A stretch of 64,000 bases of DNA from Desulfurococcales archaeon (GTDB lineage: Archaea; Thermoproteota; Thermoprotei_A; Sulfolobales; Desulfurococcaceae). The notes under the pieces are model-generated. The model was not told where the DNA came from. It saw only the letters and a list, made by a program, of their open reading frames with translations, and made no database searches. The stretch spans positions 416,001 to 480,000 of the forward strand of contig JALVYU010000031.1 in assembly GCA_027022365.1 (NCBI GenBank), written 5' to 3'. The position numbers and the translations under genes are program-made. Of this stretch, positions 5,201 to 49,078 are shown one piece after another (position 1 is the first letter of the stretch; each line of letters starts with the position of its first letter).

Positions 5201-5896
5201 TTATTCCCTCGCGGCGACAACACTTTGCCCCCCACCATTTCTCGGAGACTTAGAGTCCCCAGTTATCTTCCATAAAGGTTTAACGATAATATTCCTCCCA
5301 ATGATAAGGCCCGCAAAATACTTTAGAAGCCATATCAACCTATATAGCCTAACATAGTCTTCGTCAGAACCGCACCTGAATAAATAATAGTAGCAAAAAT
5401 AATCAGAGCACCGCCTAAATCTAAGCTTAACAAAATTACAGCTAACATCATCAAATTCAGACAAGTCTATCCTCGAACCAAACTCTGTTTTCTCCATTAT
5501 ATCCCTTATACTAGACACAACATTCCTTAGATCAATAAAACCCTGGCTCCTAATCCTGTTACTACTCACAATCTCATATCCAAGAAGGAGACCATCATAT
5601 TTACCATGCACCAGATCACCAAGCTTAACACTCCTGACAAAATACTTGTCGAAAAAAACCAAATACTTATTCAGATCCAAAACATCGTAGACAGTAACAT
5701 AATCAACCCTGTCATATAATGAGACAACAGACAAGAAAGTTAAACCCACATCGAGAAAACCATACTCACTGCTAAAAACACCGTACTCACAATAACCCCC
5801 ATAACAGCCATTAAACCAGCACCTAAAAATCTTCTCTAAAAAATCATCAATAATCATATTCTTACTTGCCATCTTGAAACCTACAATATACATCAA
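5201..5896 (-). CDS. Hypothetical protein divergent from the csm operon
   Basis: 231-aa ORF in AT-rich DNA; no motif confidently recognised. Confidence 0.6.
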   Translation of the reverse strand: MMYIVGFKMASKNMIIDDFLEKIFRCWFNGCYGGYCEYGVFSSEYGFLDVGLTFLSVVSLYDRVDYVTVYDVLDLNKYLVFFDKYFVRSVKLGDLVHGKYDGLLLGYEIVSSNRIRSQGFIDLRNVVSSIRDIMEKTEFGSRIDLSEFDDVSCNFVKLRFRRCSDYFCYYYLFRCGSDEDYVRLYRLIWLLKYFAGLIIGRNIIVKPLWKITGDSKSPRNGGGQSVVAARE

Positions 5897-6213: not shown

Positions 6214-6672
6214 GTGTATAGATCGAATGCATTAACAAACATATTCTATACCATTATCAATAAGAAGGACTATGTTAATGCATTGAATCAGCTTAGAAAT
6301 ATACAAGTTTATGGAACAACCATGACTTCTTATCGTAAGATCCATTCACTAATTACGGATGTCGTCGATAAGGTATTATCGTTTGAGCAAGCAGGACAAG
6401 GATCAAGTATTACTAACGAGAAGGTTTCTATGATTGTTTCGGAGTTAGTGAGAGTCTCGCTCCTTGTACTGTATCAGATGAGGCGTGGATTGATTAATCG
6501 AACAGTGGCAGAAGGTTTGCACAGTATTTTAAACACCATTACGTCTACCCTCCAGAATTACCTTAGGAGCAGGGATTCAAAGTATATTGAGCTTGCAAAG
6601 AAACAGGTTGATGCATTAAAGATCATTATTGACGGTATACTGGCACTCCATTATGAAAAATTCAAGAAATAA
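6214..6672 (+). CDS. csm2: Type III small subunit Csm2 (Cas11)
   Basis: 152 aa helical protein, SYRKIH...LYQMRRG...ILALHY pattern, directly upstream of csm3. Confidence 0.7.
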   Translation: MYRSNALTNIFYTIINKKDYVNALNQLRNIQVYGTTMTSYRKIHSLITDVVDKVLSFEQAGQGSSITNEKVSMIVSELVRVSLLVLYQMRRGLINRTVAEGLHSILNTITSTLQNYLRSRDSKYIELAKKQVDALKIIIDGILALHYEKFKK

Positions 6673-6691
6673 GGAGGAGGTGGTAGGTATC

Positions 6692-7654
6692 TTGTCCCAG
6701 GAGAAAGGTTGGATTCGTAGGAGGATCCTAGGTGTATTAACTATAGATTATAGGCTCGTGAATACCACTGGATTACTCATAAGATCTCCGTCCGCAAAAG
6801 CCGTTATCGGTGGACACGATATACAGCCAATGATTATTAAGAAGAAATACGTATTCAGGGAACCTACGGGGGAGGGCGGAGGGAAAACCGAGGGCGTTGA
6901 GGTTGAGGTCCCATTTATTCCCGGATCGAGTATAAAGGGTAGAATGAGGAGTCTTCTAGAACTATATGAGGGTGCACGCCTTTATTTTGATGGTAAAATC
7001 CACATCCATGTTAGGGATCTCAATAGACAGGATAGGTGCAATGATCTAGATCATGCCCTGGATAATCTGTTCGGCTCCCCCTCTATCCAGGTTAAAAATG
7101 TAGCGGAGAAAAAGGATCTACTGAAAGATATTCAGGATAAGATCGCTCCTACTAGGCTTATCGTTGAAGACGTGTTCCCATCGGAGAAATACGTGCTGGA
7201 GTTGCTGAATCGATACGGTGTTGTCAGCAAAGAGGATTTCCTCGAGGAGAAATCCGAGAATAGAATCGACAGAATAACAAGCGCTGCTGACCCTAGGTTT
7301 ATATTACGGGTTAAGCCTGACGTTGAGTTCGCGGGTAGAATGACACTATTACTCTTCGATGTCGACTACAAGTATGATAAGATCAAGGAGTACCTGGATC
7401 TTCTATTGACAGGCTTCAAGCTTATCGAAGACACGTATCTCGGCGGCAGCGGGACACGTGGATATGGTAAGGTAAGATTCAAGGACTTAGTGATAAGGCT
7501 TAGAACACCCGGCTACTACCTAGGTAAAGAAGACGAGATAGAAATTGTAAAAGCCGGTAGCATTGATGAGCTATTAAAGACTAAGGATAAGGTACTAAGC
7601 AAGATCAATGAATATATTGTAAAATATGTCGACGAAGAGCAGTTGTCTGGATAA
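6692..7654 (+). CDS. csm3: Type III backbone RAMP Csm3
   Basis: IGGHD (catalytic Asp), PFIPGSSIKGRMRSLLE, ENRIDR, YLGGSGTRGYGKV; start uncertain (6680 or 6692). Confidence 0.93.
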   Translation: MSQEKGWIRRRILGVLTIDYRLVNTTGLLIRSPSAKAVIGGHDIQPMIIKKKYVFREPTGEGGGKTEGVEVEVPFIPGSSIKGRMRSLLELYEGARLYFDGKIHIHVRDLNRQDRCNDLDHALDNLFGSPSIQVKNVAEKKDLLKDIQDKIAPTRLIVEDVFPSEKYVLELLNRYGVVSKEDFLEEKSENRIDRITSAADPRFILRVKPDVEFAGRMTLLLFDVDYKYDKIKEYLDLLLTGFKLIEDTYLGGSGTRGYGKVRFKDLVIRLRTPGYYLGKEDEIEIVKAGSIDELLKTKDKVLSKINEYIVKYVDEEQLSG

Positions 7655-7671
7655 GGGGGAGCCTAAAGGAA

Positions 7672-8730
7672 TTGATATACTGGTACAAACTACATTTTAC
7701 TTCACCGGTCCACGTCGGTGAGCGTGGAATAGGAGTTGAATCAGTAAGCAACGTCATACACTCAACAACTATTCATGGTGCATTGATAAACGCCCTACTA
7801 TTGCTGAACAGAATCAATCCACGGGACGTGAGAAACATAGATCTAAGGCTTAACACACCAGCACCAATACTCGATATAGAAGGTTCGACCGAGAAGCTCT
7901 TATGGCTGAGAGGCCTCCATATTCTCTGGGCAGAGAAGCTCAGACAGTATCTCAAAGACGATGTACGATTATACAATGAGCTCATTAAGAAGCTTAAGAG
8001 CACATTCCTTGTAACAAGCTCGTTCCTCGATCACGATATACTCGAGTGTCGCGTCGAGATGCATGGGGCAAATAGTCGTGATGAGGAAATCATGATCAGG
8101 TGCGGCGGCGATGAATATAGACTATTAAGTATTGGCGGGTACTTCGGGAACATCATATTAACTAACGATATCGGCGACACAGAGATCGCGGGGATAGCGG
8201 AGCACGAGATAAGGCCTAGGAACAGAATTGATAGAATAACAAGTGCCGCCGAGCCATACCATCTCGGACTGATAAGGTTTCATAAACCATTATTGCTTGG
8301 AATCAAGAATAATTCAAGCATATTATCTCGAAACGATATCGAGGCAGCACTAAGGTTTCTCGGCGATACAGGTATAGGCGGGGAGAGAACATATGGTTTC
8401 GGCAAGTTCTCATTCGAGAAAACAGACGGTATAAGGGTAAACAATGATGATCAAGCTAAGCACGTCGTAGTGCAGGGACTCTATTCTCCCCCGCCAGAAA
8501 AACTCGGTGAAATACTAGGGAATTCAATATACCAGTTAATGATATATGGCTTTAGAAGCGGATATACGGGCATTGTCCGCAAACCCGTGCCCGTGCTCCG
8601 TGAGGGTAGCATCATATATTGTGACGGGGAATGCAACGGCAGAACAGTTATTGATCGCGAGCCCCTGGGAACCATCATAAGATCATTTAATCCCATCACG
8701 ACCCCTTTCAAGACCAGCGATAATACTTAG
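7672..8730 (+). CDS. csm4: Type III RAMP Csm4
   Basis: LHFTSPVHVG, IHSTTIHGAL, GIGGERTYGFGKF, EGS motif. Confidence 0.9.
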   Translation: MIYWYKLHFTSPVHVGERGIGVESVSNVIHSTTIHGALINALLLLNRINPRDVRNIDLRLNTPAPILDIEGSTEKLLWLRGLHILWAEKLRQYLKDDVRLYNELIKKLKSTFLVTSSFLDHDILECRVEMHGANSRDEEIMIRCGGDEYRLLSIGGYFGNIILTNDIGDTEIAGIAEHEIRPRNRIDRITSAAEPYHLGLIRFHKPLLLGIKNNSSILSRNDIEAALRFLGDTGIGGERTYGFGKFSFEKTDGIRVNNDDQAKHVVVQGLYSPPPEKLGEILGNSIYQLMIYGFRSGYTGIVRKPVPVLREGSIIYCDGECNGRTVIDREPLGTIIRSFNPITTPFKTSDNT

Positions 8731-8740
8731 GTGTTACTCC

Positions 8741-9931
8741 ATGAAGTCGAATCTATTCACTAAATACGTACTGGAAGCAAGCGTGGTGTCCGAGGTTTTC
8801 ATCTGGAGCGGTAATGATGTACTGGTTGGTTACGATATAGTCTTTGTGAATGATAGGGCTTACTTAATCGACCATGATCTGATGGCCTCTAAATTGCTCG
8901 AAACAAGTAGCCGGAATATTCTTGGTGAACTGAAGAACGTTTTAGACAGGGGATTAAGTCTTCTGGGATTTTTGAAAAAATATGGCATTAGGGTTGATGA
9001 TATATCGCGGGATACCCTCCCCGTAAAGGATCGAAGGATATTAATGGAAACCTATAGATATGTGAAGGATCATATACGAATGAAAAACAAACCCTATATC
9101 CCGGGATCGGAGATCAAAGGGGTATTGAGAACGGCATTACTTAACTTCTTCGTCAGTACTGGGAAAATACCGAGAAAAACAATTGATGAAATCATGCAAG
9201 GTCTCGATGAAAAGATAATTAAAGAAAAAAATGCTGGATGGGGTGTTGAGAAAATATTTAAGATGATCCTATCATATGAAAACTATAGTAGACGGGTACA
9301 GCAACACTATGTTGATATCCTTCATTACCTACATGTTTCCGACCCTTTAGAGATGAGGAGCAGATACGCCGTTGACACCATAGCCGTTGTTAAACGCACT
9401 GATCCCGGAAAAACCACCGCTATACAGCCCATTATCGGGCTCGAAGAAGGATCGAGGTTTATCTATGAGGTAAACCTGTACAGGCCTATTAGAGAAGATG
9501 CATCCGGATATAGTACTGAAATCGGTAAGTTATTGGAGAAGTACAACAAGGTATATACCGTCTTCTTCGACGCATTAAGGTATTTCTCATTGAAGCTAAT
9601 AGATTATGAGATAAGGCAGTTGAGTAAGCTACCCAGTGCGCGCCAATTCGTAGAGAGGCTTAAGAGCTGGAGAGGCGAAGTCGAGGCCGGGAAAGCCTAT
9701 TATTTCAAGATCGGGTTCGGCGCCGGAATGTATTCTAAAACTATTTATCTTAGCCTTAACAGGAAAGAACAGGCCCAGCTCATAGATATTATGTCTAGGA
9801 AAATAAGGCGGAGGACCAGGGGAAAAATCCATGTATGGGATACACTGACCTTAAAACTAGTTGGTTCACGGTATCCTAGTGAAATCGTCCCCTTCGGCTG
9901 GGTAAGGTTTTCATTTAAAAACATTTCATGA
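8741..9931 (+). CDS. csm5: Type III RAMP Csm5
   Basis: PYIPGSEIKGVLRTA, LHVSD, KIGFGAGMYSKT, PFGWV. Confidence 0.9.
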   Translation: MKSNLFTKYVLEASVVSEVFIWSGNDVLVGYDIVFVNDRAYLIDHDLMASKLLETSSRNILGELKNVLDRGLSLLGFLKKYGIRVDDISRDTLPVKDRRILMETYRYVKDHIRMKNKPYIPGSEIKGVLRTALLNFFVSTGKIPRKTIDEIMQGLDEKIIKEKNAGWGVEKIFKMILSYENYSRRVQQHYVDILHYLHVSDPLEMRSRYAVDTIAVVKRTDPGKTTAIQPIIGLEEGSRFIYEVNLYRPIREDASGYSTEIGKLLEKYNKVYTVFFDALRYFSLKLIDYEIRQLSKLPSARQFVERLKSWRGEVEAGKAYYFKIGFGAGMYSKTIYLSLNRKEQAQLIDIMSRKIRRRTRGKIHVWDTLTLKLVGSRYPSEIVPFGWVRFSFKNIS

Positions 9932-9945
9932 AACGGTGAGCAGTA

Positions 9946-12855
9946 TTGAGTAATTACCTGTATGAATTAATATACAGCGCCCTCCTCCACGATATCGGTA
10001 AGATCAAGAACAGGGTTGAGAAGAGAGGGTTCCACGAAAAGCACAGCGTCGAATTTCTAAGCCTATACGCCGACATGTTCAAAAAGATCGGTACTAGATT
10101 CGATGTTATCGAAAAACTGGTGTTATGTCATCATATCAGCCGCAGAGATCGTAGGGGTAGAGAGGAGCTCCATATATGTAGCAATCTTAGTGATGAGGAG
10201 CAAAGCCTCCTAGGGACGCTTCGCGAGGGGGATCACAAAGCCGCCCCCGACAGGATCACCAGAGAGAATCCTCTCGGCGGTGGAGAAGGCTCGAAGAAGC
10301 TGTTGAAGCTGGTCTCGCCTCTATGGGTTAAAAACTATTACGACCTGACAAAGAACAATGATAAGCCTATAAATATTGAAGACTATGCGGAGAACATTAT
10401 AGCTAATAGCAGGATCTGCTATAATCCTGTACCATTGACTGTTCTTAGCAAGTACGGTTCAGGTGTTTCAACAATCATTAACTCTTACCAGGCCAGTCAA
10501 TGCACTGATGAACAGTATCTTAATGAGTATTATAGGTTGATCCTTAGGGATCTCGAGGACAAGTTCGACAGGCTGAGGGAACTCGTGATCCACGACTACA
10601 TGGATAAAGACACGGTTCTAGCCTCCCTAATCAACTATATAAGGTACTCGCTACTACTCGTACCCGATGACGTCTATAATACATTGTTTCCTGATACAAG
10701 TCTCGCGGTACACTTAATACTGTCTTCGGCCCTCGCTTCTTCATACTATATCGGGGGATCAGATAAGATACGGGTTGCACTCTTAGATCTAAGCGGTATC
10801 CAAAACTATATTGCCTCGTACGCTAAGACCAGCGGCGTGCTGAGACAGATAAGAGGCCGTTCCCTACTCCTACAACTCGTAATGCGTGCATCCGCTGAAT
10901 ACATACTTGATAGACTAGGATTGCCTCCAGTCCATCTCATCCTCCTACGAGGAGATAACGCGTTATTCATTCTGCCCGAGAAGATCAACGACGAGGATAG
11001 CGGCAAACTATTCCTCGACGCCGCAAGAGAGATCGAGGAGAGCATCTATAGGATCTTCCACGGCGACATATATGTTGCAGCAGCAGTATCGGAGCCATTC
11101 ACCCCCCTATATAGCATGCCATGGAAACCCGATTTCGGCGAGAAAGGCTTCTCCAAAGCACTCATCGAACTCGGCGAAAAACTAAGCCTTGACAAGATGA
11201 GGAAGTTCTCACGAATAACCAGCTCGCTAAGCGAACACGTAAGCCTCGATGACAATGATCAAAAAAGTGTAGATGAGTGCGAACTATGTAGAGCAACGCT
11301 ATACAAGGATAAACTCGTCGACATAAGAAAGTATGGTAAAGCCTGTGGACTTGACTACCTAGATGCAGAAAAAGCCTGTCTAGCATGTCTATTCTCCCAT
11401 ATAGCCGGCTACGCTGCCGAGAATCTCAGCTTCATAATAGAGATCCGCGACAAGAAAATAACCGAGAAAATATTCAATGACCTTCTGTCCGGGGAACTAC
11501 CCTCCAAGTTCAGGATCGAGGACTATAAGATAGGTATAATACCATTAGTAGGGCTTGACCGTACATATATACTTATATCATTCCAGGAAAAGAACGCGGA
11601 AAAACATAGTAGTAAAAACGTTGATGAAGAATGGAGGAGACTATATAACTTCCTAATAAACATTGTTATTGATAAAGTCCTCAAAACATACGGATATGAA
11701 ACATATTCTTCAGGAATAAAAACTATCCGTATAACTGTAATGAAGATTAATGACCCGCTCAATTCTATTCCAAAGCAAGAATATTGTGGGGCAAGACTAC
11801 CGACTATGTTAGGTCATGGTATCCGTGTAGTATATAGCTTCACAACATTGTTCACTAACTTTACCACAAAAGGAATGAATGATCTAGGTGAACTCGCGGA
11901 AGTTGATAAAGAAAAAGAGACCTATCTATCATGGATAAAAATCGATATTGACAGGATGGGTGAGAACGGATTATATCTTATTGGAAGTATTAGTCGTTAT
12001 ACTACATTATCGGAGCTCGTCAATTTCTTCACTAACATGCTGGGGTACGAGCTATTAAAGCAGAAATCAAAGCGCTTGGATGGCGGGGAGGAAGGAATAT
12101 GGAGGAAATCTATTGTGGTCTTCAGCGGCGGAGACGATACTCTTATTATATCACGCTTTGTCGAGGGACTCTATTACTTGTACTACTACCATGACTGGTT
12201 CAAGAGGTTCTTCGGCGAAATAAGCGGTAAAGAACCATTGACCGTCTCAGCAGGCATGTTTGTATCGGAGGCAGATTATCCGTCATACCTGGCTTATAAG
12301 GAGGCCTTAAGGCTATTAGAAAAGGCTAAGGACGAGGGAAGAAATAGGATCAGCACGTCTATCCTCGATCTACACGTACCATCAGCAAAGGATACCGTCT
12401 CCTCAAAGCAGCCGAAGAAAACCCTTGAATGGGATAAATTCAAGAATATCATCTCATTATCCACGGATACCACTGTAACAAGTTTCGTCAAAGAACACAA
12501 GGTACTAGCGTTCAAAATAGCGTCTTTAATGGAAAATATCAGCGCCGCATCATACGGCATCCTCAATAGTATAGCGTCCGGATCCCCTATACGGAGGGAA
12601 CAATACAGGGAACTCGCAGAGAAGATCGTTGCATACACTTATGTCTATAAGAAGTTCGAGAAAACAAGTACGGGTGGCTCATCGCTCAAACAAGTACTCG
12701 ACACCATAACGAATAAGCTAGGGGTAGGTGATGCTACGCCGAAAAACCTGATCGATCTAATGGTCAAGGACAAGATAGACGAGATACTGCTTATAACATC
12801 CAGCGTTTACAGGGCATTATCCTTAATCCTACTGAGGATCAAGGAAAACATCTAG
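9946..12855 (+). CDS. cas10: Cas10/Csm1 with HD nuclease and Palm (GGDD) domains
   Basis: ALLHDIGK, DLSGIQNYI, RGRSLLL, CELC...CLAC, KIDIDRMG, FSGGDD. Confidence 0.95.
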   Translation: MSNYLYELIYSALLHDIGKIKNRVEKRGFHEKHSVEFLSLYADMFKKIGTRFDVIEKLVLCHHISRRDRRGREELHICSNLSDEEQSLLGTLREGDHKAAPDRITRENPLGGGEGSKKLLKLVSPLWVKNYYDLTKNNDKPINIEDYAENIIANSRICYNPVPLTVLSKYGSGVSTIINSYQASQCTDEQYLNEYYRLILRDLEDKFDRLRELVIHDYMDKDTVLASLINYIRYSLLLVPDDVYNTLFPDTSLAVHLILSSALASSYYIGGSDKIRVALLDLSGIQNYIASYAKTSGVLRQIRGRSLLLQLVMRASAEYILDRLGLPPVHLILLRGDNALFILPEKINDEDSGKLFLDAAREIEESIYRIFHGDIYVAAAVSEPFTPLYSMPWKPDFGEKGFSKALIELGEKLSLDKMRKFSRITSSLSEHVSLDDNDQKSVDECELCRATLYKDKLVDIRKYGKACGLDYLDAEKACLACLFSHIAGYAAENLSFIIEIRDKKITEKIFNDLLSGELPSKFRIEDYKIGIIPLVGLDRTYILISFQEKNAEKHSSKNVDEEWRRLYNFLINIVIDKVLKTYGYETYSSGIKTIRITVMKINDPLNSIPKQEYCGARLPTMLGHGIRVVYSFTTLFTNFTTKGMNDLGELAEVDKEKETYLSWIKIDIDRMGENGLYLIGSISRYTTLSELVNFFTNMLGYELLKQKSKRLDGGEEGIWRKSIVVFSGGDDTLIISRFVEGLYYLYYYHDWFKRFFGEISGKEPLTVSAGMFVSEADYPSYLAYKEALRLLEKAKDEGRNRISTSILDLHVPSAKDTVSSKQPKKTLEWDKFKNIISLSTDTTVTSFVKEHKVLAFKIASLMENISAASYGILNSIASGSPIRREQYRELAEKIVAYTYVYKKFEKTSTGGSSLKQVLDTITNKLGVGDATPKNLIDLMVKDKIDEILLITSSVYRALSLILLRIKENI

Positions 12856-13390: not shown

Positions 13391-14890
13391 ATGTCAGGTC
13401 TGAAGATACTACTTATTGCCCCTTGGGGATACCCCCCTCTATGGAGGACTAGTAATTATCAATTGAATAATGTGTGGATTGCCGGAAGAACATTTAGTGG
13501 TCGTTGTACGGGTTGTAGTAGTTCTCTCTGCCTCTACTTCACATTAAAGTCGAGTAGCAAGATTGCTGACACATGGCTACTTGTCATAGGATCTGACTCA
13601 GTTATAAGTCCTGAAAAACGTTGGCCTATAAGAGAAAATGTAGAAAAATGGTTTAATGATATAAAGAAACAATTATTCGATACAACCAAGTGTGAGGAAA
13701 TTAGTAAAAAGAGTGAATGGCTTGAAGACATATATGTAGAAGTCGTACCCAGTATAGGCCAGTATTATGGATATTACTTCAAGGGAGACATTATTGAAGT
13801 ATTCGTCGAAGCATACCGTGCTATAACCAACTATATGGAAAAACTGAAACCAAGTATCATAGTACTAGATACCACGCACGGCCTAAACATATTAACAATA
13901 GCTACGCTTTACGCTACAATAGCAGCTTCAATAATATATAATAAGAAAGTCTATATTTTCAACTCAGAGCCCTATCCACCAGGCACAAGAACTAAGGCTT
14001 GCGTCAAAGGAGAGAAACCTGTTCCTATTGATAATACACCCGAGTTAAACATACATGACATATCGACTCTGCAATGGATTATAGATTATTTAAGGGCACT
14101 AAACTTTCTAAGGTATCTTAATGAAAAGCCTTTAGCAAAAATGATCAGAGTCATTGAAGGCATAGAAAATCCGCTCATAAATAAGCTTGTCACAAATATG
14201 ATCTGCATGATTGAGGCATTAAGGACTGGATTACTTGGACTAATATATAATAACAGTAAGTTTTCCAACGGAGAAAACATATCATTCACAATAAGAAGTA
14301 TTGTTGAAAAACTAAAAGAACTACCCAAAATACAGAGGGATAAACCATGGACAAAGCCCATAGTCAGAGACAAGAACGTCGAATACGAACTAAGCATTAA
14401 GGATATCCCGATAAGATATATACCAATACTCGATGCTCTAAGAAAGATCATTGGGGAATTAGAAGGGCTCGCAGAGATTGAATCGTTAAAAGAGTTTACG
14501 AAGCAAATTGCTATACTGCTTGACAGTAAAGGATACTGGGAGAAGAAGCAGATCATTGTACATGAGGCATTCGATCTATTAGATATTGTTGAGGAAATAT
14601 ATGAGAATGAAAAGACAACCGAGATCGATAGAGAATTACTCAGAAAGTACTGGAAGAAAAGGAAAGGTATAAAGGACGATAGGGAAGGAGCGTCGGCGGA
14701 GTCAAGTCACGAGCTCGTTTCGCCCAGAAATTTCGCCGCTCATGCTGCTTTAAACCATAATGTGCTTGAGAAGATCAAGACGAGTGATGATGGAAAAGAT
14801 ATTGTTGAAATAGTTTACAACTACACTGATCTCAAGAAAACAATCAAGCAAATCGGCGATAAAACTAGTCTGATGAAATGTATATCTTGA
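13391..14890 (+). CDS. csx1: CARF-HEPN ribonuclease Csx1
   Basis: APWGYPPLW, LDTTHGLN, NSEPY; C-terminal RNFAAH HEPN motif. Confidence 0.88.
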   Translation: MSGLKILLIAPWGYPPLWRTSNYQLNNVWIAGRTFSGRCTGCSSSLCLYFTLKSSSKIADTWLLVIGSDSVISPEKRWPIRENVEKWFNDIKKQLFDTTKCEEISKKSEWLEDIYVEVVPSIGQYYGYYFKGDIIEVFVEAYRAITNYMEKLKPSIIVLDTTHGLNILTIATLYATIAASIIYNKKVYIFNSEPYPPGTRTKACVKGEKPVPIDNTPELNIHDISTLQWIIDYLRALNFLRYLNEKPLAKMIRVIEGIENPLINKLVTNMICMIEALRTGLLGLIYNNSKFSNGENISFTIRSIVEKLKELPKIQRDKPWTKPIVRDKNVEYELSIKDIPIRYIPILDALRKIIGELEGLAEIESLKEFTKQIAILLDSKGYWEKKQIIVHEAFDLLDIVEEIYENEKTTEIDRELLRKYWKKRKGIKDDREGASAESSHELVSPRNFAAHAALNHNVLEKIKTSDDGKDIVEIVYNYTDLKKTIKQIGDKTSLMKCIS

Positions 14891-15061: not shown

Positions 15062-15895
15062 TCACTGCTTCTCTATGCTTAGCAATGTTTTTGCGAGCCT
15101 GACGGCTTCTGGTAGTGGTCTGCCGTTTATTGTTAGGCCCAGCCTATCGGTTACGGCCCATATCTCCTGGGGCAGCTTCTTCTCTGTGAGTAGCAGGCTG
15201 AGGATCTTCTTCATGTTGTCTGTTAGCTCCAGCTCTATCACTGGTATTTCGATTATTCTTCTCATGTACTCGTGTATGTAGTACGCTGTATCTATTCCGA
15301 GGATGCTCGAGGCCAGGAGGAGGAACCCTGTCTCTGGCTTGAATCCCGCGGTGAGGTTTACTAGGACTCTGTCGTAGTCTCTGCTCTTGGCCACTCTCCA
15401 GGCGATCTTCTCGATGAGGTTCAGGATCCCTCTCCAGAAATCCCTGCCGAAGCCCTCGACCATGACCGCCTCGACGCCTCCGACCCGGTGGCCCTTCCCA
15501 AGGTACTCGTCCCCGAGGCCATGCCTCCCCAGGTACTCCATGATTATCCTCGACGCAAACATGCTCGTACCCGTATCGGTCGGGTACAGGACGATATCGT
15601 GGATCACGCCGCTGTAACCCCTGCTTATCAGCAGGTCTACGTATCCCATGAAGGAGTTCAGCTCGGCGGAGGCCCGACGGGGATCAGACTGCACATACGC
15701 CAGGACATCCCTGAAAACACTGGACGATACACGGGCGTGCTCGCCCGCGTCCTTGTCCCAGAACGAGTCGGGCGCCGCGCGGGACCACTCCCTGAGCCTC
15801 TCCGCGTGCTTCCCGAGTATATCGTATTCAACAGCGTCTCGAGCCGCATTCCTAATAATACTGGTCCCAACCGTTGTCAAGTGGAGAAACCTCAA
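15062..15895 (-). CDS. CARF protein of APE2256/Crn1-like family (candidate cOA ring nuclease)
   Basis: TTVGTSII, SAELNS, YPTDT, VNLTAGFKPE, YYIHE; TTG at 15895 with upstream GGTGGTGA RBS. Confidence 0.8.
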   Translation of the reverse strand: MRFLHLTTVGTSIIRNAARDAVEYDILGKHAERLREWSRAAPDSFWDKDAGEHARVSSSVFRDVLAYVQSDPRRASAELNSFMGYVDLLISRGYSGVIHDIVLYPTDTGTSMFASRIIMEYLGRHGLGDEYLGKGHRVGGVEAVMVEGFGRDFWRGILNLIEKIAWRVAKSRDYDRVLVNLTAGFKPETGFLLLASSILGIDTAYYIHEYMRRIIEIPVIELELTDNMKKILSLLLTEKKLPQEIWAVTDRLGLTINGRPLPEAVRLAKTLLSIEKQ

Positions 15896-16646
15896 GAGAT
15901 CACCACCAACCAGTAGTATTGTTCTAGTAGGAATAAAACATTGTCCGTCTCCCACAGGCCCACCCAGCCCCATATACCCTCTACGTGGACGCTGATCCCC
16001 AGGGCGTCTCCAGGGATCTTGATCTTTTTCAATTATTGGATCTCTGGCGGATGTAAACCGGGGAGTTACCAGGCACCATAGCCCCCAAACACACAACCAG
16101 AACAAAAAAGACGAAATACAAATCATAAAATCACAGCTGAGCCCTCAAACCCTTCCAGAGAGAATATCTCCCATGATCGCGCCACAGCCACATACACTCG
16201 TCAGGAACACCTATTCAGCAAAAACGAACACCAAGCCACAGATAAACACCAACATGAACGACAACAACGTTCCACAGCCTCCCCATAAAAACCCAAGAGA
16301 AAAACTGGTTACCCCTCCCCATCGTTCACAAAACGTTCGTTTCCCCAGTTCATTTTAACTGTTCATTTACGCCGGGAGAACATTGAGGAAAAATAATGCT
16401 GGATACAGCTGAGCTGTATAAACAACCGGACACGAAACAATTCTTCACCCACACCCCGAGCCGTTCAAATACTCGTCCACAGCCCGAGAAACAACTATTA
16501 TAGGGGGCGTTCACGAACAACAGTTCACAAACAATAAATTCGCCCACGTTCACATTTTTACGAACACCTCATCTGTTTCCTCTAATCAAATTTACAGAAG
16601 AATATACTGGAGAAAAATTGAAAGAGAGCCCTGAAAGACCATATTA

Positions 16647-17000
16647 CCTCCAGTTTATTCTTGTTTGTCTCTCGGATAAACACCACCACGTACCCCTTGA
16701 TCAATAATCCGGTGCTCAACCTCTTTCAGTTCTATTTGTTTGTTTCATACCCATGACTTTCAGTTTTCTTTGTTTGTATCGATCACGCTTTGAATACCTT
16801 TCTTACGGGCGTATTCCCAGAACTCATAGCTTTCAGTTATTTGTATTTGTTTCCCTTCAAATCCCGACTACTGGGCGAATAATCCCGAATACGAAGAGAT
16901 AATCTTTCAGTTTTTTGTGTTTGTTTCTGGATGGTTCTCAATTAGCTTCTGGAACGAATACAAGTATATCATCATCCTTTCAGTTCTTTTTGTTTGTTTC
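16647..17000 (-). CRISPR. Mini CRISPR array 1: 6 mutually different ~24-nt repeats (consensus GAAACAAACAAANAAACTGAAAG-like), 5 spacers of 51, 10, 49, 50, 49 nt
   Basis: Repeats at 16647, 16723, 16757, 16830, 16904, 16977 (CTTTCAGTT...TTTGTTTC on +); leader on the right. Confidence 0.88.
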
Positions 17001-17163
17001 TGTTCTTGTTTGTTTATTTGGTTGTTTTAATATTTTATGTTTTGCTCTGGTGTTTTCCCCAACGATCCATTGGCCCGGTGAGAGCCACCATAAACCGGTT
17101 GGTATAGATCAGCGATAAAGTGTTAAGCATAGGCTAACACAGAATATGGTGGGGGTTGTCTTG
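17001..17163. repeat. Leader/bidirectional promoter, left copy of ~164-bp inverted repeat
   Basis: Reverse complement aligns to 20655-20818 with ~19 differences by manual count. Confidence 0.9.
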
Positions 17164-18057
17164 GTTTTGTTTGGGGACTTGTTTGGTGGTAGGTGGTTGT
17201 TTGAGTCGGGTGTTTCCGGGTATTTTTTGCTGCGTGTTGTTGTTAGGGTTGTTTGTGATGGTGGCTGGGTGGTTCTGCCTCCTTTTACGGGGAAGGTTGT
17301 GAAGTCATTACTTATCCGTGGTTTTGGTGGGCTGGATAGTGTTTTTGGCGGTGTGTTTAACCCTAAGCCGATCCATGTCTCGCCCCTGCTTGTTGGTGGT
17401 AGGTGGTTGTGGAAGCGGGGCGGTGAGAGGGGGGTTCTCCGTGTCCGGTGCGGGTCTGAGGCGGTCTTCTATGTTGGGTGTACTGAAGATGTTGCGGGGA
17501 TGGTTTTTAGTGGTGTTGAGGGGCTGAGTGGTGCTGAGCTATTTAATGCCCGCTGGGAGCTCGTCTCCCTGGATATTGAGAGGTATGATCTCCCCTCGGA
17601 GGACCTGGGCATCGGGATCGATGGGCATGACAGGGTTGTCGTGGAGTTTAAGAGCCCCGCCATACTCGTCGATCCCTATAAGGCCTCGCCCAGCAACCCG
17701 AGGTTCCTGCCGCTTGCAGGGGTCTTGTTCTCGTACAATATAGGTGATCTGCTCCGTATGAGGAGGCGGGAGCATAGATGGGAGTCGAGGTTCTGGGCCG
17801 CTGTCGATATTGTCAATGCTGTCCTGCACGAGCATAGACGTATACTGGACAACATATATACCGTCACGTATAACTATGATGGCAGGATAGGCTACGGGGT
17901 CGGCGGCAGGGCGGTCTACTATATCGTTAAGAGGATTATAAGGGAGAAGCCCTGGGTCAAGGCGTTCCTGGAAAACATAATCGTGCATGCAAGGATCATG
18001 GGCGTAGGCTCGAGCAGGGCGAACGGATTCGGCCACGTATCTATAAGGCTAGAGTGA
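17146..18057 (+). CDS. cas6: Cas6 endoribonuclease
   Basis: PPFTGKVVKSLL, PIHVSPL, VEFKSP, C-terminal GVGSSRANGFGHV G-rich loop. Confidence 0.9.
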   Translation: MVGVVLVLFGDLFGGRWLFESGVSGYFLLRVVVRVVCDGGWVVLPPFTGKVVKSLLIRGFGGLDSVFGGVFNPKPIHVSPLLVGGRWLWKRGGERGVLRVRCGSEAVFYVGCTEDVAGMVFSGVEGLSGAELFNARWELVSLDIERYDLPSEDLGIGIDGHDRVVVEFKSPAILVDPYKASPSNPRFLPLAGVLFSYNIGDLLRMRRREHRWESRFWAAVDIVNAVLHEHRRILDNIYTVTYNYDGRIGYGVGGRAVYYIVKRIIREKPWVKAFLENIIVHARIMGVGSSRANGFGHVSIRLE

Positions 18058-18075
18058 CAACCGCCTCATCACCGC

Positions 18076-18816
18076 CTACCCGGCCACGAGGCCCCTGGGT
18101 AATGGCACGTACTCGGCCCTGATCCTCCCCCTATAGCTGTACGTTATCTTGTACATGGGTGCTGCGCGGACGTAGCCTATGATGCTTTTCTCGCCTATGA
18201 AGGGATTGTTTCTCGTGACTAGGACGGCGCTGTAGTCTCTCACGTCTACCCCCATCTCCTTCATGTCGCCTATGTTTACCGGTATGGTTGAGTGGCCCTT
18301 ATACAGTGGGCCCGCCTCTACGATCTTGTCTGGACGGATAATCCTTGCCCTGATTATCCCCCACCGCTTCTTACCGATCCTAATGTATCTCGGCAGGGGC
18401 TTTTGGGGGTCGTGTATGATTATGGTCTTGTACAGGGAGCCGGGCCCCACCGCGTAGTAGTGTACCTGCAGGGGGTGTACCAGCTTCGGCTTAGCCTTCT
18501 CTGGGATCGCCAGTGTCTCCGGCGTCGGCGACAGGAATATCCTTGTATAGGACACGTGGATCGGCTCCGCCGGGTAAACGTAGAAGCCTTCCCTGATGGC
18601 CTCTGAAACCACCCTGTAGCTCGGGGGAATGGTTCTCCCCATGATGGTCTCCGAGCTGTAGCCTAGGAACCCGTAGATCAGCGGGTAGTTGTGTATGAAG
18701 GGGTGCGTACGGATCATGGGGCCCGGGGACAGTGTTGATTCCTTTATGCTCTCCTGCATCTTGGAAAACACTAGTAGTCCGTGGACTTCGAGGTAGGCTA
18801 TGCTTACCGTGCGCAT
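18076..18816 (-). CDS. csc1: Type I-D Cas5 (Csc1)
   Basis: THPFIHNYPLIYGF, YVYPA, LPRYIRIGKKRWG. Confidence 0.85.
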   Translation of the reverse strand: MRTVSIAYLEVHGLLVFSKMQESIKESTLSPGPMIRTHPFIHNYPLIYGFLGYSSETIMGRTIPPSYRVVSEAIREGFYVYPAEPIHVSYTRIFLSPTPETLAIPEKAKPKLVHPLQVHYYAVGPGSLYKTIIIHDPQKPLPRYIRIGKKRWGIIRARIIRPDKIVEAGPLYKGHSTIPVNIGDMKEMGVDVRDYSAVLVTRNNPFIGEKSIIGYVRAAPMYKITYSYRGRIRAEYVPLPRGLVAG

Positions 18817-18819
18817 CTC

Positions 18820-20652
18820 CTACTTCTTCCCCTTCTTCTTTCCTTCCCTGCCAGCCAGCTTTGCGAGCTCGTCATGCTTTGCCTTGGCGTCACTCCACGC
18901 CTCCCTGGCAATATTTTTGAGGTCGGCCTCTCTCCTCACCGTCTCTGCGATGCCGCTGCTTATACAGTATTTGGCGTACGGCGTGGCCTTCCCGATCTCC
19001 CTGATGTAGCCCTTATAGATCGTCAGTGCCTCCTCAGGGGTCTTCGGGGCGGAGGACAGTATTTTAAGGGCCGCCTCATAGCCGCTCCCCACCTCGTAGG
19101 GAGCCGCTATCAGCCCAGCGATCTCAACTGCTACTCTGCCGAAGTGCGTCTGAACGGCGCCGAGGCGATCGATGGTGGCGAGGCTGTAGAGTACTAGTAG
19201 GAGCTCGTTCCACGTCAGGTTCTTCAGGGCGATCTTGCCGACGAACAGTACTCCGGGCTTCACAGCGCGGTCCTGGAGGAGCGCCTGCCCGGTCACGTGG
19301 AGCGCCTCGTCCACCGCGTTCCTCGTGAAGGTGAATGTAGCGTCTTCCTCCCTAACAACAGCGTAGTAGACGTCCCCCTCGACCCTGCTCTTCACATTAT
19401 AGTCTCCGCCCTGGACGGCGAACCCGTAGATGAGGCAGGCCGGGCATCTCCCACAGTACCCGACGCCCTTGGATCCGCCTGTGACGTTTACTATGCACTG
19501 CCACCCGCCGCCCAGCAGCTCCTCGAGAACCGCTGATGTCTCCAGCGTGTAGCTTATCCTGTCGAGCACCACGAGGGCTTGGGCCCCGGCTTTCTCGGCG
19601 TACTCTACTGCTTCCCGGCTGTGCAGCCTAACGTGTGTGGACATGAGCTTCTGCACGGTGTATATGTTGATCAGGCCCGGCCTCCCGGCCTCCACGGCGT
19701 CCCCCCTACCGTACCCGTAGAAGGTGATCCGGGCCGGGAGCTTGACGAGGTCTCCGCCGCCACTCCCGCTCTCCTCAACCTTGCCTACTACGGGCACATC
19801 CAGTGCCTCAAGGTGCTTCTCGATGCCGGGTATCGGCGTCGCCGTGGAGAGTATTGTCAGCGAGCCGCTCTCCGCGAACAGCTTGACCAGTGCCAGGCTG
19901 GAAAGGTAGTCCAAGAGACCCCAGGAATGGTACTCGTCGAAGAAGACGATCGGCTTGCTGCCGAGCCGTAGATTAACCGTTCCCAGCCTGGCAAGCCTGT
20001 CCTTCAAGCCCGTGATTCGGGGCTCCACCCCCTCGAGAATACTGGATATATAGCGCGCCGTCCTCTCGTAGTCGCCGTAGACGCCGAGCAGGACGTAGTA
20101 AAAGAGATCAGGGGTGGCGAGCACGACGCTGTAGTCCGGGTCAATCCTCATCAGCTCACCGCTGATCCTTACGAGCATGTCGAGGTGCCCCAAACCCCTA
20201 AAACCACCAGTCTCGCCGAGCTCCCCCAGGATCCTCCCGCTGATACGGGCCAAGACGAGCTTCTCGCCGCCCGGCCCCACATACAGCCGGAAAACCCTGT
20301 CCCTCCAATCACCGAACACGCTCAAACCATATCCTAGAGCCCTCTCAACAATATTCCCGACACTCCTGAACTGGTCATCCAGCAACTCATTACTAGGATA
20401 AAGACCTAGGCAGCCAAACCCCCTCAAGCCAGCCTCCCGGAAAACCTCATAGCCGAGGAGAAGACACAAAGACTTACCCGCACCAGTAGGAGCAGAAACA
20501 AGGACAACCCCAGGCCCAACACCACCAGAGACAAAACCACCTATAATGCTGAGAACACGCTCCTGAAAACCCCTAAGCCAAAAAGAACCAAACCTCTTAC
20601 CGCTCTTACTAACAAAAACACCTCCAACAGACAAATCATGCACCAACACCAA
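18820..20652 (-). CDS. In-frame chimera: N-terminal Cas3' helicase part fused to C-terminal two-thirds of type I-D Cas7 (Csc2)
   Basis: APTGAGKS, YPSNEL, TPD, DEYH, STATP, then CGRCPACLIYGFA, KSRV, RNAVDE, VKPG, LGAVQTHFG; junction near 19495-19515. Confidence 0.82.
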   Translation of the reverse strand: MVLVHDLSVGGVFVSKSGKRFGSFWLRGFQERVLSIIGGFVSGGVGPGVVLVSAPTGAGKSLCLLLGYEVFREAGLRGFGCLGLYPSNELLDDQFRSVGNIVERALGYGLSVFGDWRDRVFRLYVGPGGEKLVLARISGRILGELGETGGFRGLGHLDMLVRISGELMRIDPDYSVVLATPDLFYYVLLGVYGDYERTARYISSILEGVEPRITGLKDRLARLGTVNLRLGSKPIVFFDEYHSWGLLDYLSSLALVKLFAESGSLTILSTATPIPGIEKHLEALDVPVVGKVEESGSGGGDLVKLPARITFYGYGRGDAVEAGRPGLINIYTVQKLMSTHVRLHSREAVEYAEKAGAQALVVLDRISYTLETSAVLEELLGGGWQCIVNVTGGSKGVGYCGRCPACLIYGFAVQGGDYNVKSRVEGDVYYAVVREEDATFTFTRNAVDEALHVTGQALLQDRAVKPGVLFVGKIALKNLTWNELLLVLYSLATIDRLGAVQTHFGRVAVEIAGLIAAPYEVGSGYEAALKILSSAPKTPEEALTIYKGYIREIGKATPYAKYCISSGIAETVRREADLKNIAREAWSDAKAKHDELAKLAGREGKKKGKK

Positions 20653-20654
20653 GA

Positions 20655-20818
20655 CAAGACAACCCCCACCTTATTCTCTGTTAATTATTGCTTAACACTT
20701 TATCGCTGATCTATACCAACCGGTTTATGGATGCTCTCATTGGGCCAGTGGATCGTTGGTGGGAGTACCCAGAGCAAAACATAAAATATTAAAACAACCA
20801 AATAAACAAACAAAAACG
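20655..20818. repeat. Leader/bidirectional promoter, right copy of inverted repeat
   Basis: Shares perfect 42-bp and 45-bp blocks with the reverse complement of 17001-17163. Confidence 0.9.
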
Positions 20819-21065
20819 GTTACAAACAGATAGAACTGAAAGTTTATCCGTTATCCCCTTGATCTCCTTATCTATTTTTCCTATCTCTACTGTTACAAAC
20901 AGATAGAACTGAAAGTCATTATATCGCTCTTGCTCTTCAGCAGCGCCTTCAGCTCGTCCCTCATAGAAACAAACAGATAGAACTGAAAGCGTCTACGGCA
21001 TGAGCATATGGGAGACCCCGGAGCACGAGACCCTCTACACGGATACAAACAGATAAAACTGAAAG
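20819..21065 (+). CRISPR. Mini CRISPR array 2: 4 repeats (GWWACAAACAGATARAACTGAAAG), 3 spacers of 49, 50, 52 nt
   Basis: Repeats at 20819, 20892, 20966, 21042. Confidence 0.92.
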
Positions 21066-40404: not shown

Positions 40405-41220
40405 GAAACAATAAACAAAAATTGAAAGGCCGAGCAGTCCGTTCGGCAAGAACGTTAAGAGCGACTTCGAAACAATAAACAAAAATTGAAAGGCTTGTCG
40501 CCCAGAGGCATAGCCGCCAATGTAACGATGGTGCGAAACAATAAACAAAAATTGAAAGGATTAATATTATAGACATTCCAGCATTCTGAACAACGATAAG
40601 AAACAATAAACAAAAATTGAAAGACTATGAATCCAGAGAGTAGGGCTAGGGCTATGAACCCGTAGAAACAATAAACAAAAATTGAAAGCTACTATTGTTC
40701 TCCTTTCCCTTATGCTTCTCTCTATTAGGTTTGAAACAATAAACAAAAATTGAAAGTCACATTGATATGTTGTGTGTTCGTAGTAGCTGTCGTAATCAGA
40801 AACAATAAACAAAAATTGAAAGATAATAACAAGAGACTTACTCACAGGTTTTACTACAATGTACGGATGAAACAATAAACAAAAATTGAAAGTTCCTAGC
40901 TATGTGTTCCAGAAGAGCGACCACCCTCCAGCGAAACAATAAACAAAAATTGAAAGCAATCCAAAAGAGCTAGTAATACAACTATGGTACAACTATAAGG
41001 AAACAATAAACAAAAATTGAAAGGCCTTAGTATTGTACCTACAGGGTCTGAATCGGCTTCCTGAAACAATAAACAAAAATTGAAAGGTAGTATATCGTTA
41101 GGGTCTCGTCGCGGTTCAAGTAGAACGGAAACAATAAACAAAAATTGAAAGTATAGCTGTTAGCAGGGTCGCTATTATGTCTCCATCACTAGCAGTGAAA
41201 CAATAGACAAAAATTGAAAA
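40405..41220 (+). CRISPR. CRISPR array 3: 13 repeats GAAACAATAAACAAAAATTGAAAG, 12 spacers of 39-46 nt
   Basis: 12 identical repeats from 40405; degenerate terminal repeat 41197-41220. Confidence 0.97.
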
Positions 41221-43444: not shown

Positions 43445-44467
43445 ATGGTTTATACGAGCATCTCGGCCCGGATCCTATTAAATATTGAAGCGCTAAATAT
43501 GACTGAAAGCGCCGGCAACTATGTGAAGCATAGAAGAGCACCAGTAGTCATTCCAACGAGTAATGGGTATATTCTCAGATACGTTCCAGTGATCAGTGGT
43601 GAGAGCATAGCTCACGCTTACCAGGAAATACTCGCTAAGATAGCTGAGGAAACAGGCCTACCAGTATGTAGTCTATGTAGGCAGGGCGTATTCCTCAAAC
43701 ACACAGATAAAAACGTGTTCAAAAGAACAGGTATCCCAGCACCCGACTTCAAGAAACCGGAGAGCGTCGAGGAGACAATCGTTAAGCACTGCGTAGTCGA
43801 GGACGTAGGCGGCTTCCTAAACACTGACGCCGCTTTAAAGAGGACGAGCAGATTCTACGCAGGATACATGATCCCAGCACTAGACTCTATCAAGACAAGT
43901 GCTGCAGAGGCACAATTCCATGTCAGATACGATCCCCTGTCGATCCAGACACAAGCAATATATAACATAGAAGCTGGAAGCGCATTATACGTATTAACGC
44001 TCGGGCTAGACATAGACGGAATAGGTGTTTCAAGCATAGCTTTAGAAAACAGTAAGCCGAAACCCCTAGTATCCCCTGAGGAGAGATCTAAGAGGATTGA
44101 GGCAGCATTCAAAGCAATGCATCTACTAGTAACGCAAATGCTCTTCGGAGCAAAAAGAACAAGGTTCATGCCTAACTGGAAGATAATGAGCCTAGCAATA
44201 CTCACTACGCATCCGCTACCCCTGAATGTCCGGCCAGCACATACGAGCAAATACATTGAGGAGACAATAGAATCAGTGAATCATGCCGTAGAACTGCTAG
44301 GTAAGGGGGCATCAAAGATAGAGGAGAAAGCACTCCTAGCATACTATTCGGCGGAAGAAAAACCAGTAGTCGGAGAGTCCAGTGTAAGCATATACGAGGC
44401 CAGGACACCCGACGAAGCATTCAACAAATCCTATGAGTACATACAAGAACTGTTGGGGATGAAGTAA
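43445..44467 (+). CDS. cas7: Type I-A Cas7 (Csa2)
   Basis: EALNMTESAGNYVKHR, VPVISGESIAHAYQ, VEDVGGFL, FGAKRTRF. Confidence 0.95.
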   Translation: MVYTSISARILLNIEALNMTESAGNYVKHRRAPVVIPTSNGYILRYVPVISGESIAHAYQEILAKIAEETGLPVCSLCRQGVFLKHTDKNVFKRTGIPAPDFKKPESVEETIVKHCVVEDVGGFLNTDAALKRTSRFYAGYMIPALDSIKTSAAEAQFHVRYDPLSIQTQAIYNIEAGSALYVLTLGLDIDGIGVSSIALENSKPKPLVSPEERSKRIEAAFKAMHLLVTQMLFGAKRTRFMPNWKIMSLAILTTHPLPLNVRPAHTSKYIEETIESVNHAVELLGKGASKIEEKALLAYYSAEEKPVVGESSVSIYEARTPDEAFNKSYEYIQELLGMK

Positions 44468-44469
44468 GG

Positions 44470-45261
44470 TTGAAGAGCATCTTATTAGTAGATATAGTTT
44501 TTTCATGGGGCCACATGATTAGGCCACCATATCAAAGCGGGGGAGGACAGGCCCTACCCTACCCTCCCCCAACAACCCTGATAGGAGCCTTGGCAGCCCC
44601 GTATCTAAGACTGAGAGAGCCAGTGGAGATCATTTACCATGATAAGAAAGCGTACAGTCCAGCCGCCAAGTTACTAGATATTGTGAGCTACGCCGTTATG
44701 GGCTATCCTAAACCATGCGTAACCGAGATAATTGATATTAACAAATACTACTCCTACGCTTATCTTAGACCCAAATATAAAAAGTATGAAAGATTCTGGT
44801 CAGCCGCTATAGGCACGGGTAAAATATACTCACCATCAAACGCTGTAATCGCATACATAGTCGAGCAGGAATACGGAGAAGAACTAGCCAAGGCAGCATG
44901 GGGGATCACGAGGATCGGTAGCAAGGAAGGACTGGTATCAGTAAGGAGAGTAAAACTGGTAAAACAACCAGCAGTAATCGAAGAACAAAAGACCGTCAGT
45001 ACAATTTTCCCAACACCCCTAAACATAGTAGAGCCTAGGGAAAACTGCAGGATCATCTATTTCTGGAAAATTATGAGGGAAGCATATACTTCGTACATGC
45101 CGAAGGAATACGAAGAATATCTCGACAAATACGTTGTCCCAGAATTCACTAGCAGAGTCTACGGTGGATCTATGAAGGTAAAGCCGCTAGAAAACGCCGT
45201 AGTAGTCGAAACACCATATTCTCCACTCATACTTCCCAAGGAAAAACTAGGTATAAGGTGA
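44470..45261 (+). CDS. cas5: Type I-A Cas5
   Basis: PYPPPTTLIGALA, AWGITRIGSKEGLV. Confidence 0.93.
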   Translation: MKSILLVDIVFSWGHMIRPPYQSGGGQALPYPPPTTLIGALAAPYLRLREPVEIIYHDKKAYSPAAKLLDIVSYAVMGYPKPCVTEIIDINKYYSYAYLRPKYKKYERFWSAAIGTGKIYSPSNAVIAYIVEQEYGEELAKAAWGITRIGSKEGLVSVRRVKLVKQPAVIEEQKTVSTIFPTPLNIVEPRENCRIIYFWKIMREAYTSYMPKEYEEYLDKYVVPEFTSRVYGGSMKVKPLENAVVVETPYSPLILPKEKLGIR

Positions 45262-48190: not shown

Positions 48191-48217
48191 GATTGTTAGC
48201 CGCTGGGGGTCGAAACA

Positions 48218-49066
48218 ATGTATTTCCATGCATACATCGATAAGGATGGCAGGAATTATAGTTTAATAGGGCACTCCATAGACACTCTTCTCGTCGCTTT
48301 AAAGACAAATATCAACAAGAGACTATATACTGTCACTTGCAGGATAATAGAAGGAGATAACCATAGAGAGGTTATTCACTCCTACCTTCTCCTACCGTTT
48401 TTACTACATGACATAGGGAAAATAATGATCATGTACCAAGAGAGACCCGCCAAATGGAATTATGGATACGCGTTCCACGAAATTGTTGGCGGCATACTAA
48501 TGTATAAGATCAGCGAGCAAATCCTCGAGGATGATGTAGCGGGAGTAGATTATCAAATGCTGAGGTATCTCTTGGTGGAATCCGTTAAGAGACACCATTA
48601 TTCAATGAACCGTGGATTAAACGAGTTAATTGAAGCTATGAACAGAGGACTCTTTAAATTCGTGAACGGCGTTTATAATGTTGTGAAAAGAAGTGATCTG
48701 GAAAAATATATTCTAGGCATAAAAACATGCTTAGAGAGATACTCTGAGATGGTGCCCCGCCAACTAAATAACATACTAGATAATATTATTGAAAAAGCTC
48801 TACCAAACATGCGTGACACTCTTTTTAGCCTCTATACAGCTAGAACGTTGGAGCAAAAAATCAAGAAAATAGAGGATTACCTGCGTAGCAAGAATGTTAA
48901 TGAAGCCTTCATATACAACGCCGTATTGACAGGATTAATCTCATTAGCTGATTACACGGCAGCATCAATAGAGAGAAGCAATAAACTAAGAGGATATGCT
49001 TCAAAATTTTACTCCAAGAGCGAAATAAAGGAGATTAATGCTATTATACCGGTCGAGTGCAGATAA
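48218..49066 (+). CDS. cas3HD: Cas3'' HD nuclease
   Basis: LIGHS, LHDIGK, FHE, RHH, LADY. Confidence 0.92.
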   Translation: MYFHAYIDKDGRNYSLIGHSIDTLLVALKTNINKRLYTVTCRIIEGDNHREVIHSYLLLPFLLHDIGKIMIMYQERPAKWNYGYAFHEIVGGILMYKISEQILEDDVAGVDYQMLRYLLVESVKRHHYSMNRGLNELIEAMNRGLFKFVNGVYNVVKRSDLEKYILGIKTCLERYSEMVPRQLNNILDNIIEKALPNMRDTLFSLYTARTLEQKIKKIEDYLRSKNVNEAFIYNAVLTGLISLADYTAASIERSNKLRGYASKFYSKSEIKEINAIIPVECR

Positions 49067-49078
49067 TACCTCGTCTAT

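Follow-up and report, generated by a model that had tools for sequence, protein, structure and literature searches.

A small type I-D locus between two outward-facing arrays

The window analysed here is a 64-kb stretch of DNA (G000:C31:416001-480000) from the genome of a Desulfurococcales archaeon, G000 (1.74 Mb, 44 contigs, 99.97% complete, metagenome-like source), and our subject is a type I-D CRISPR-Cas locus at positions 16649-21065 of it. In order, the locus consists of array A (read leftward), leader A, cas6 (rightward), csc1 (leftward), a chimeric Cas3'::Csc2 open reading frame (ORF; leftward), leader B and array B (rightward). Both arrays are transcribed outward, and the leaders lie on their inner side. 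An earlier note on this DNA had given the identities, names and coordinates of these genes and the directions of the arrays, all of which were confirmed; it went on to propose that the genes form a self-contained minimal module and the window's best candidate for an undescribed system. In our reading, the locus is very probably a recently inactivated, decaying type I-D remnant, in the layout that is usual for its lineage. The features are listed below by position in the window (nt, nucleotides; aa, amino acids).

16649..17000, minus strand: array A, 5 recognisable 24-nt repeats and a degenerate terminal one
16977-17000, 16904-16927, 16830-16853, 16757-16780 and 16723-16746, minus strand: repeats of array A, with 4, 5, 6, 4 and 3 differences from the consensus
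about 16649-16672, minus strand: degenerate sixth repeat of array A
17001..17145, minus strand: leader A, 145-nt intergenic stretch from the first repeat to the cas6 ATG, member of a four-copy leader family
17146-18057, plus strand: cas6, 303 aa, intact, convergent with csc1
18076-18816, minus strand: csc1 (Cas5d), 246 aa, intact, TIGR03159 match at 46.7 bits (cut-off 41.4)
18820-20652, minus strand: chimeric ORF, 610 aa, residues 48-108 matching Cas3'/DEAD, residues 381-531 matching Csc2
18820..19508, minus strand: Csc2 (Cas7d) part, C-terminal ~230 residues, the first ~94 residues of a normal Csc2 gone
19509..19524, minus strand: deletion junction, 16 nt GAGGAGCTGCTGGGCG encoding EELLG, common to cas3'-type and csc2-type contigs
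19525..20652, minus strand: Cas3' part, N-terminal ~376 residues, first RecA-like half with SAPTGAGKS, DEYH and SAT motifs
20653..20818, plus strand: leader B, with the shared core leader at 20673-20818
20819..21065, plus strand: array B, 4 repeats, spacers of 49, 50 and 52 nt
20819-20842, 20892-20915, 20966-20989 and 21042-21065, plus strand: repeats of array B, with 0, 0, 2 and 2 differences from the consensus

Among the I-D components, Cas5d/Csc1 and Cas6 were found intact. The csc1 product is 62% identical to the G006 copy over residues 2-246 and matches Cas5d (7SBA_H) at E 1.6e-4. The Pfam matches of the cas6 product to Cas6_N and CRISPR_Cas6 stay below their cut-offs (23.8 against 27 bits and 18.2 against 25 bits, respectively). 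Over residues 3-301 it is 49% identical to the Cas6 of G182, and a profile built from 7 Cas6 homologues retrieved the Cas6 structures 4ILL (E 1e-10) and 3ZFV (8e-10) over nearly the full length. The N-terminus, MVGVVLV..DL..G.R.LF, is conserved in the Cas6 of two other genera. By homology the product is a true Cas6 endoribonuclease, its catalysis being predicted.

The Cas3'::Csc2 fusion, its breakpoints and intact forms in near relatives

The third gene joins two truncated proteins in one frame. Residues 1-381 of the chimera align to 19-397 of the 744-aa Cas3' of G006, a genome of the same family (57% identity), and residues 371-610 to 95-332 of the 332-aa Csc2 of G006 (65%). On the Cas3' side only residues 1 to ~380 of a 718-744-aa protein are present; on the Csc2 side only positions 75-225 of the 282 in the Csc2 model find a match, which falls in a 616-aa frame and is the only match of that family in the genome. 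PDB matches of the Csc2 part start at residue 160 (Csc2, 4TXD) and residue 99 (Cas7d, 7SBA), and therefore the N-terminal part of the Cas7 fold is absent. A class-wide search found Csc2 in 51 of 351 genomes, with no other match in a frame of more than 600 aa; among the matches listed, most cover the model from its start, or nearly so, and lie in open frames of ~260-430 aa, and a few are fragments.

The unbroken parents of the fusion are found in near-identical strains. P0002 is a whole Cas3' of 718 aa, identical to the chimera at 367 of 392 aligned positions (~97% over the shared part), which follows it closely through ...SAVLEE(L/M)LG and then continues with ADKVAVVTG where the chimera has GGWQC. 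Contigs from the sequencing runs X2 and X8 leave the window just before 19509 and, translated by eye, continue with ADKVAVVTGM as P0002 does. On the other side of the junction, record 28 of X8 leaves the window just after 19524, encoding ..DVKKHV before EELLGGGWQC (again by eye; compare EVKKHVEGLVGGEWKC in the Csc2 of G006), and the match of X4 record 21 stops at 19524, beyond which the contig has 248 more letters that lie off the stretch. The claim of an undescribed system thus fails on these relatives, one with a whole Cas3' at ~97% identity and others whose contigs run into intact cas3' and csc2.

A search of 5.8 billion proteins (335-1068 residues) returned 10 matches, and only P0001, which belongs to the chimera's own cluster, has 610 aa and differs from it at one residue, reaches 100% coverage. 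The cluster also includes P0013 (418 aa, from another assembly). Near residue 355 it has a frameshift, and its tail is exactly what frame 2 gives when read through the junction; the Csc2 part therefore goes untranslated in that assembly.

These breakpoints indicate how the locus came about. The usual form is an interference cassette between two outward-transcribed arrays, each with a copy of the conserved leader. A deletion between the two copies of the 16-nt microhomology brought codon ~380 of cas3' in frame with codon ~95 of csc2; the fusion is in frame because the microhomology encodes EELLG in both parent genes. Lost with it, about 4 kb in total, were the helicase's second half, the N-terminal part of Cas7d, the backbone protein, and, presumably, the whole of cas10d. 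Left over are an intact cas6, an intact csc1, small arrays without cognate adaptation genes, and the fusion ORF, which owes its open frame only to a deletion that is young and in frame.

Cas10d is missing from the genome as far as our searches reach. By tblastn, 10 Cas10d queries (four from the loci of G182, G191, G006 and G151, six from protein searches, P0014-P0019) gave no match in the genome of the window at E <= 1e-3. The TIGR03174 (Cas10d) model also found nothing there, but it found nothing in any control genome either. In the excerpt of PMC10212523, Cas10d carries the HD nuclease and the pocket for the protospacer adjacent motif (PAM), encodes Cas11d internally and is the interaction partner of Cas3'. 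With no Cas10d there should therefore be no HD nuclease, no PAM reading and no Cas11d, and without Cas10d and a whole Cas7d we would expect I-D interference to be impossible. Adaptation genes are likewise absent from the locus, in which no cas1 was found (cas2 and cas4 were not searched for). The only Cas1 match of the genome lies on contig C39, beside arrays of another, I-A type repeat (GAAACAATA(A/G)ACAAAAATTGAAAG), and the Cas1-like genes linked to I-D in G182 and G191 share just 27-34% identity with it. In its anatomy, the earlier description of a cassette without Cas10d, nuclease or adaptation genes was right.

Leaders, arrays and a mirrored layout that is ordinary in a relative

The two leaders are inverted copies of each other, as the earlier note had it. 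The repeat finder paired 16977-17050 with 20769-20842 at 92% and 17059-17187 with 20631-20759 at 83%, and in a global alignment of first repeat plus leader 151 of 170 nt are identical between 16977-17145 and 20673-20842. Beyond these, 17146-17171 and 20647-20672 agree at 21 of 26 nt. Taken whole, the 65-nt extension past the core has an alignment score that 0 of 2000 shuffles reached; its outer 39 nt align no better than shuffles (146 of 2000 reach the score) and share only a G/T-rich composition. The duplication had been said to run through a GGTGGGGG ribosome-binding site to the start-codon region of the inward gene: its reach holds, though it does not extend far beyond, and the ribosome-binding site does not, GGTGGGGG being codons 1-3 of cas6, since the Cas6 N-terminus MVGVVLVLFGDLFGGRWLF is homologous to MGGVLLVTDLVGSRRLF in the Cas6 of G182 and G181, whose genes adjoin no leader. 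At the other end, 20647-20672 is a copy of the first ~26 nt of cas6 with the ATG changed to AAG. Through this copy GGTGGGGG comes to stand a few nt upstream of the TTG at 20652 with which cas3' starts, the point where homology to other Cas3' proteins begins. Leader B may thus have arisen by inverted duplication of a unit made of the first ~26 nt of cas6, the leader and the repeat.

The unit of leader and mini array is present in 4 copies in the genome. Over 154-170 nt, two of them match leader B at 96% and 88% identity; these are orphans on contig C26 (at about 141.0-141.45 kb and 188.96-189.43 kb), far from any cas gene, with 4-5 repeats each:

G000:C26:140980-141450, minus strand: orphan mini array among housekeeping genes, leader shared with the window arrays
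G000:C26:188964-189432, plus strand: orphan mini array among housekeeping genes, leader shared with the window arrays

Of 63 genomes of the family, 5 (counting G000) have homologues of the leader, among them G182 (13 matches), G181 and G006. An alignment of 13 leader copies from 4 genomes revealed a conserved block, GATC.ATACCAACC, ~110-125 nt upstream of the repeat and a second one, CATAAAAT.TT.AAACAACCA, ~30-50 nt upstream of it; the latter is a TATA-like box, at a distance that would suit the promoter of the precursor CRISPR RNA (crRNA). Leader A itself carries the invariant block GATCTATACCAACC and, ~25-45 nt upstream of repeat 1, an A/T-rich box (CATAAAATATTAAAACAACCA). In the inward direction, the ATG of cas6 has a TATA-like ATAAAG 26-31 nt upstream of it, a spacing that would yield a leaderless cas6 mRNA, and the same box stands upstream of cas3' in leader B. 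The cas6 promoter must sit inside the 145 nt of leader A, and each leader would carry the promoter of its inward gene, so a bidirectional unit that drives crRNA outward and cas genes inward, as the earlier note suggested, is plausible on the motifs.

The repeat shared by these arrays has 24 nt (GxxACAAACAGATAGAACTGAAAG), with 8 matches in the window at <=3 mismatches against 0 expected from 100 shuffles. The arrays have regularly spaced direct repeats, unique spacers and a leader; regular spacers measure 49-53 nt, and the 14 regular spacers of the genome's four arrays of the I-D repeat are all unique. They have no match in the genome beyond the arrays themselves, and a blastn comparison of the four arrays with 50,697 records of phages and viruses (IMG/VR was outside the scope) gave none. 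Array A, whose five repeats each carry 3-6 differences from the consensus and which has one spacer shortened to 10 nt, looks frozen and drifting. Contigs of run X4 that cover 16750-17010 have other spacers between the same repeats, with 39 unmatched letters between repeat copies, and therefore arrays with the I-D repeat vary between strains of the population.

A survey of repeat periods, which covered the window arrays, the two orphans on C26 and the loci L060, L063, L065, L069, L074 and L062, gave ~71-77 nt (spacers of ~47-53 nt) for this I-D lineage in G000, G182, G006 and G004, which represent three genera. Spacers of ~35 nt are reported for Synechocystis in the excerpt of PMC10212523, against ~50 nt here, a length that would imply a longer Cas7d backbone.

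The mirrored layout is not peculiar to this locus. In G191, a complete genome of the same order, locus L040 has the same sequence of array, leader, cas genes, leader and array, and its leaders with the first repeat are inverted copies, 100% identical over 231 nt. Between its arrays lie a Cas1-like gene, cas10d (855 aa), csc2, csc1, cas3' (660 aa), a 282-aa gene and cas6, and because a full I-D locus there sits between mirrored arrays, we regard the layout as ordinary. The repeat of G191, GATGATACGAAAGAGAACTGAAAG, ends in GAACTGAAAG like the one studied here. The G191 locus differs from ours in having cas1, cas10d and whole csc2 and cas3', and in its arrays of 30 and 45 repeats with a period of 60-65 nt. 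At our locus, the mirrored layout predates the deletion, because an X8 contig from a slightly different strain covers 19796-20690.

Other members of the lineage were compared as well. G006 has the order cas10d, csc2, csc1, with cas6 convergent as in the window. In G182 (locus L039, G182:C35), a Cas1-like gene is grouped with a 276-aa gene, cas10d and csc2, and cas3' diverges from them; gene order within the I-D lineage is therefore variable. Within the genus, none of the 5 other genomes has Csc2; one of them, G004, without a Csc2 match, has kept a degenerate mini array of the same repeat family (locus L062, G004:C98). Across the genus, type I-D seems to be vanishing.

Compared with type I-D systems as presented in the excerpt of PMC10212523 and in the structures 7SBA and 4TXD, the locus has homologous Csc1, Cas6, Csc2 part and Cas3' part, arrays with conserved leaders of ~145-170 nt, and repeats that end in GAAAG. 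It differs from them in that Cas10d was not found, which should leave it without Cas11d, in that an N-terminally truncated Csc2 is fused to half a helicase, and in that adaptation genes are absent from the locus. A published system of another subtype and gene content also combines two arrays with related leaders and one cas cassette; the same publication reports small arrays whose leaders are intact in a system that was judged to be no longer fully functional. Reduced nuclease-less derivatives of type I, namely type IV and the CRISPR-associated transposons, have an intact Cas7 and Cas5, usually with a large subunit, and a link to DinG, a transposon or another partner; they are unlike the locus, whose Cas7 is truncated. 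Next to it lie genes for a CARF protein and a glycosyltransferase; partner genes were not seen, in the absence of a dedicated DinG or Tn7 search.

A decaying remnant and the alternatives to it

The earlier note had allowed that relatives might carry an ordinary full I-D locus of which this copy is a decaying form, and this is what we found, with a full mirrored locus in G191 and a frameshifted fusion in a sister assembly. The locus is the wreck of a known system and no new minimal system. Several observations weigh against a remnant in decay. All three ORFs are open, the 610 codons of the fusion included, and the fusion occurs in at least 3 assemblies and so persists in the population. With respect to near-identical strains cas6 and csc1 are undamaged, and no indel is listed in 17200-20600 among the run contigs, which is expected because the deletion is so recent. 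Array B and the orphan array C have well-preserved repeats, and the frameshift in P0013 could be an assembly error. The position of cas10d is a further point: in the undeleted near-identical locus it would lie between cas3' and csc2, a placement we derive from the order cas10d-csc2-csc1 in G006 and from the colinear breakpoints. Neither the 2 protein matches to the G182 Cas10d query nor the 6 (896-936 aa) to the G006 Cas10d fragment are recorded on a contig as long as that of P0002 (10,202 nt), and a scan of metagenome contigs with P0002 for an intact locus gave a single relative at 29% identity.

One alternative adds to the decay of the I-D system rather than excluding it. Type III complexes borrow crRNAs from type I arrays. 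With the I-D effector dead, Cas6d and the four mini arrays might still make crRNAs that are loaded by the neighbouring Csm complex, a possibility that we rate as unlikely. The cas6 gene is intact and its product confirmed as Cas6, arrays B and C have near-perfect repeats, within 1-10 kb to the left there are the Csm3/Csm4/Csm5/Cas10 module, Csx1 and a CARF protein, and the 8-nt end of the repeat (the 5' handle ACUGAAAG) is one base off the ATTGAAAG of the I-A type repeat. On the other hand, the deletion is recent, so that the intactness of cas6 needs no selection, array A is degenerate, and there is a second Cas6 candidate in the I-A module (49079-50017), so type III needs no I-D Cas6. That Cas6d and the four I-D mini arrays have been retained because the adjacent Csm complex uses their crRNAs is accordingly doubtful; if true, it would amount to a dying type I system handing its arrays over, naturally, to one of type III.

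The remaining alternatives fare worse than decay of a type I-D locus followed, perhaps, by such a hand-over. A self-contained, co-regulated minimal Cas5-Cas6-Cas7 effector of an undescribed kind, lacking a large subunit, could be read from three ORFs between two arrays and from an in-frame fusion seen in three assemblies. It is very unlikely: the Cas7 part lacks ~94 N-terminal residues and the helicase its C-terminal half, near-identical strains have the intact parental genes, a frameshifted allele exists, and no protein beyond the chimera's own cluster, among the 10 matches, covers the whole query. Just as little can be said for a 3.4-kb core that is invertible, with recombination between the inverted leaders turning it round, even though these share exact stretches of up to 45 nt; no strand-changing joint is listed in four runs, though their contigs break inside the repeated leader and would not show a flip, and a flip would be functionally neutral, since both leaders face outward in either orientation. 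That the chimera is an assembly artefact, as a 44-contig assembly from a metagenome-like source might suggest, is next to impossible, given that a 3376-nt Logan contig of run X1, possibly the source sample, crosses the junction with 0 differences and that two further protein records from other contigs have the same junction.

Read as a young wreck of a known system, the locus corrects the view of what had looked like the window's best prospect for an undescribed system. It also shows that a fused reading frame, even if open and part of a cas cassette, is no evidence for a new architecture. Its value is modest, as a clean, dated example of CRISPR-Cas decay through one microhomology deletion, for which public data still contain both the intact parent and an allele decayed further by a frameshift.

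The window holds other CRISPR components on both sides of the locus. To the left are a type III module (Csm3, Csm4, Csm5 and Cas10/Csm1) at 6214-12855, Csx1 at 13391-14890 and, on the minus strand at 15062-16126, a Cas_APE2256/CARF protein with a weak ring-nuclease match; the ORFs at 5201-5896 and 6214-6672 have no family match. To the right, a second CRISPR array at 40405-41220 (13 repeats of GAAACAATAAACAAAAATTGAAAG, period 63-70 nt) stands upstream of a type I-A interference module at 43445-50017, which comprises Csa2/Cas7, Cas5a, Cas3', Cas3'' and the weak Cas6 candidate, together with a 385-aa protein at 45258-46415 that is possibly Cas8a. The I-D genes (17146-20652) have a G+C content of 54-59%, the genome one of 45% and the type III and I-A modules one of 43%, and along the window blocks of ~40% and ~55% alternate.

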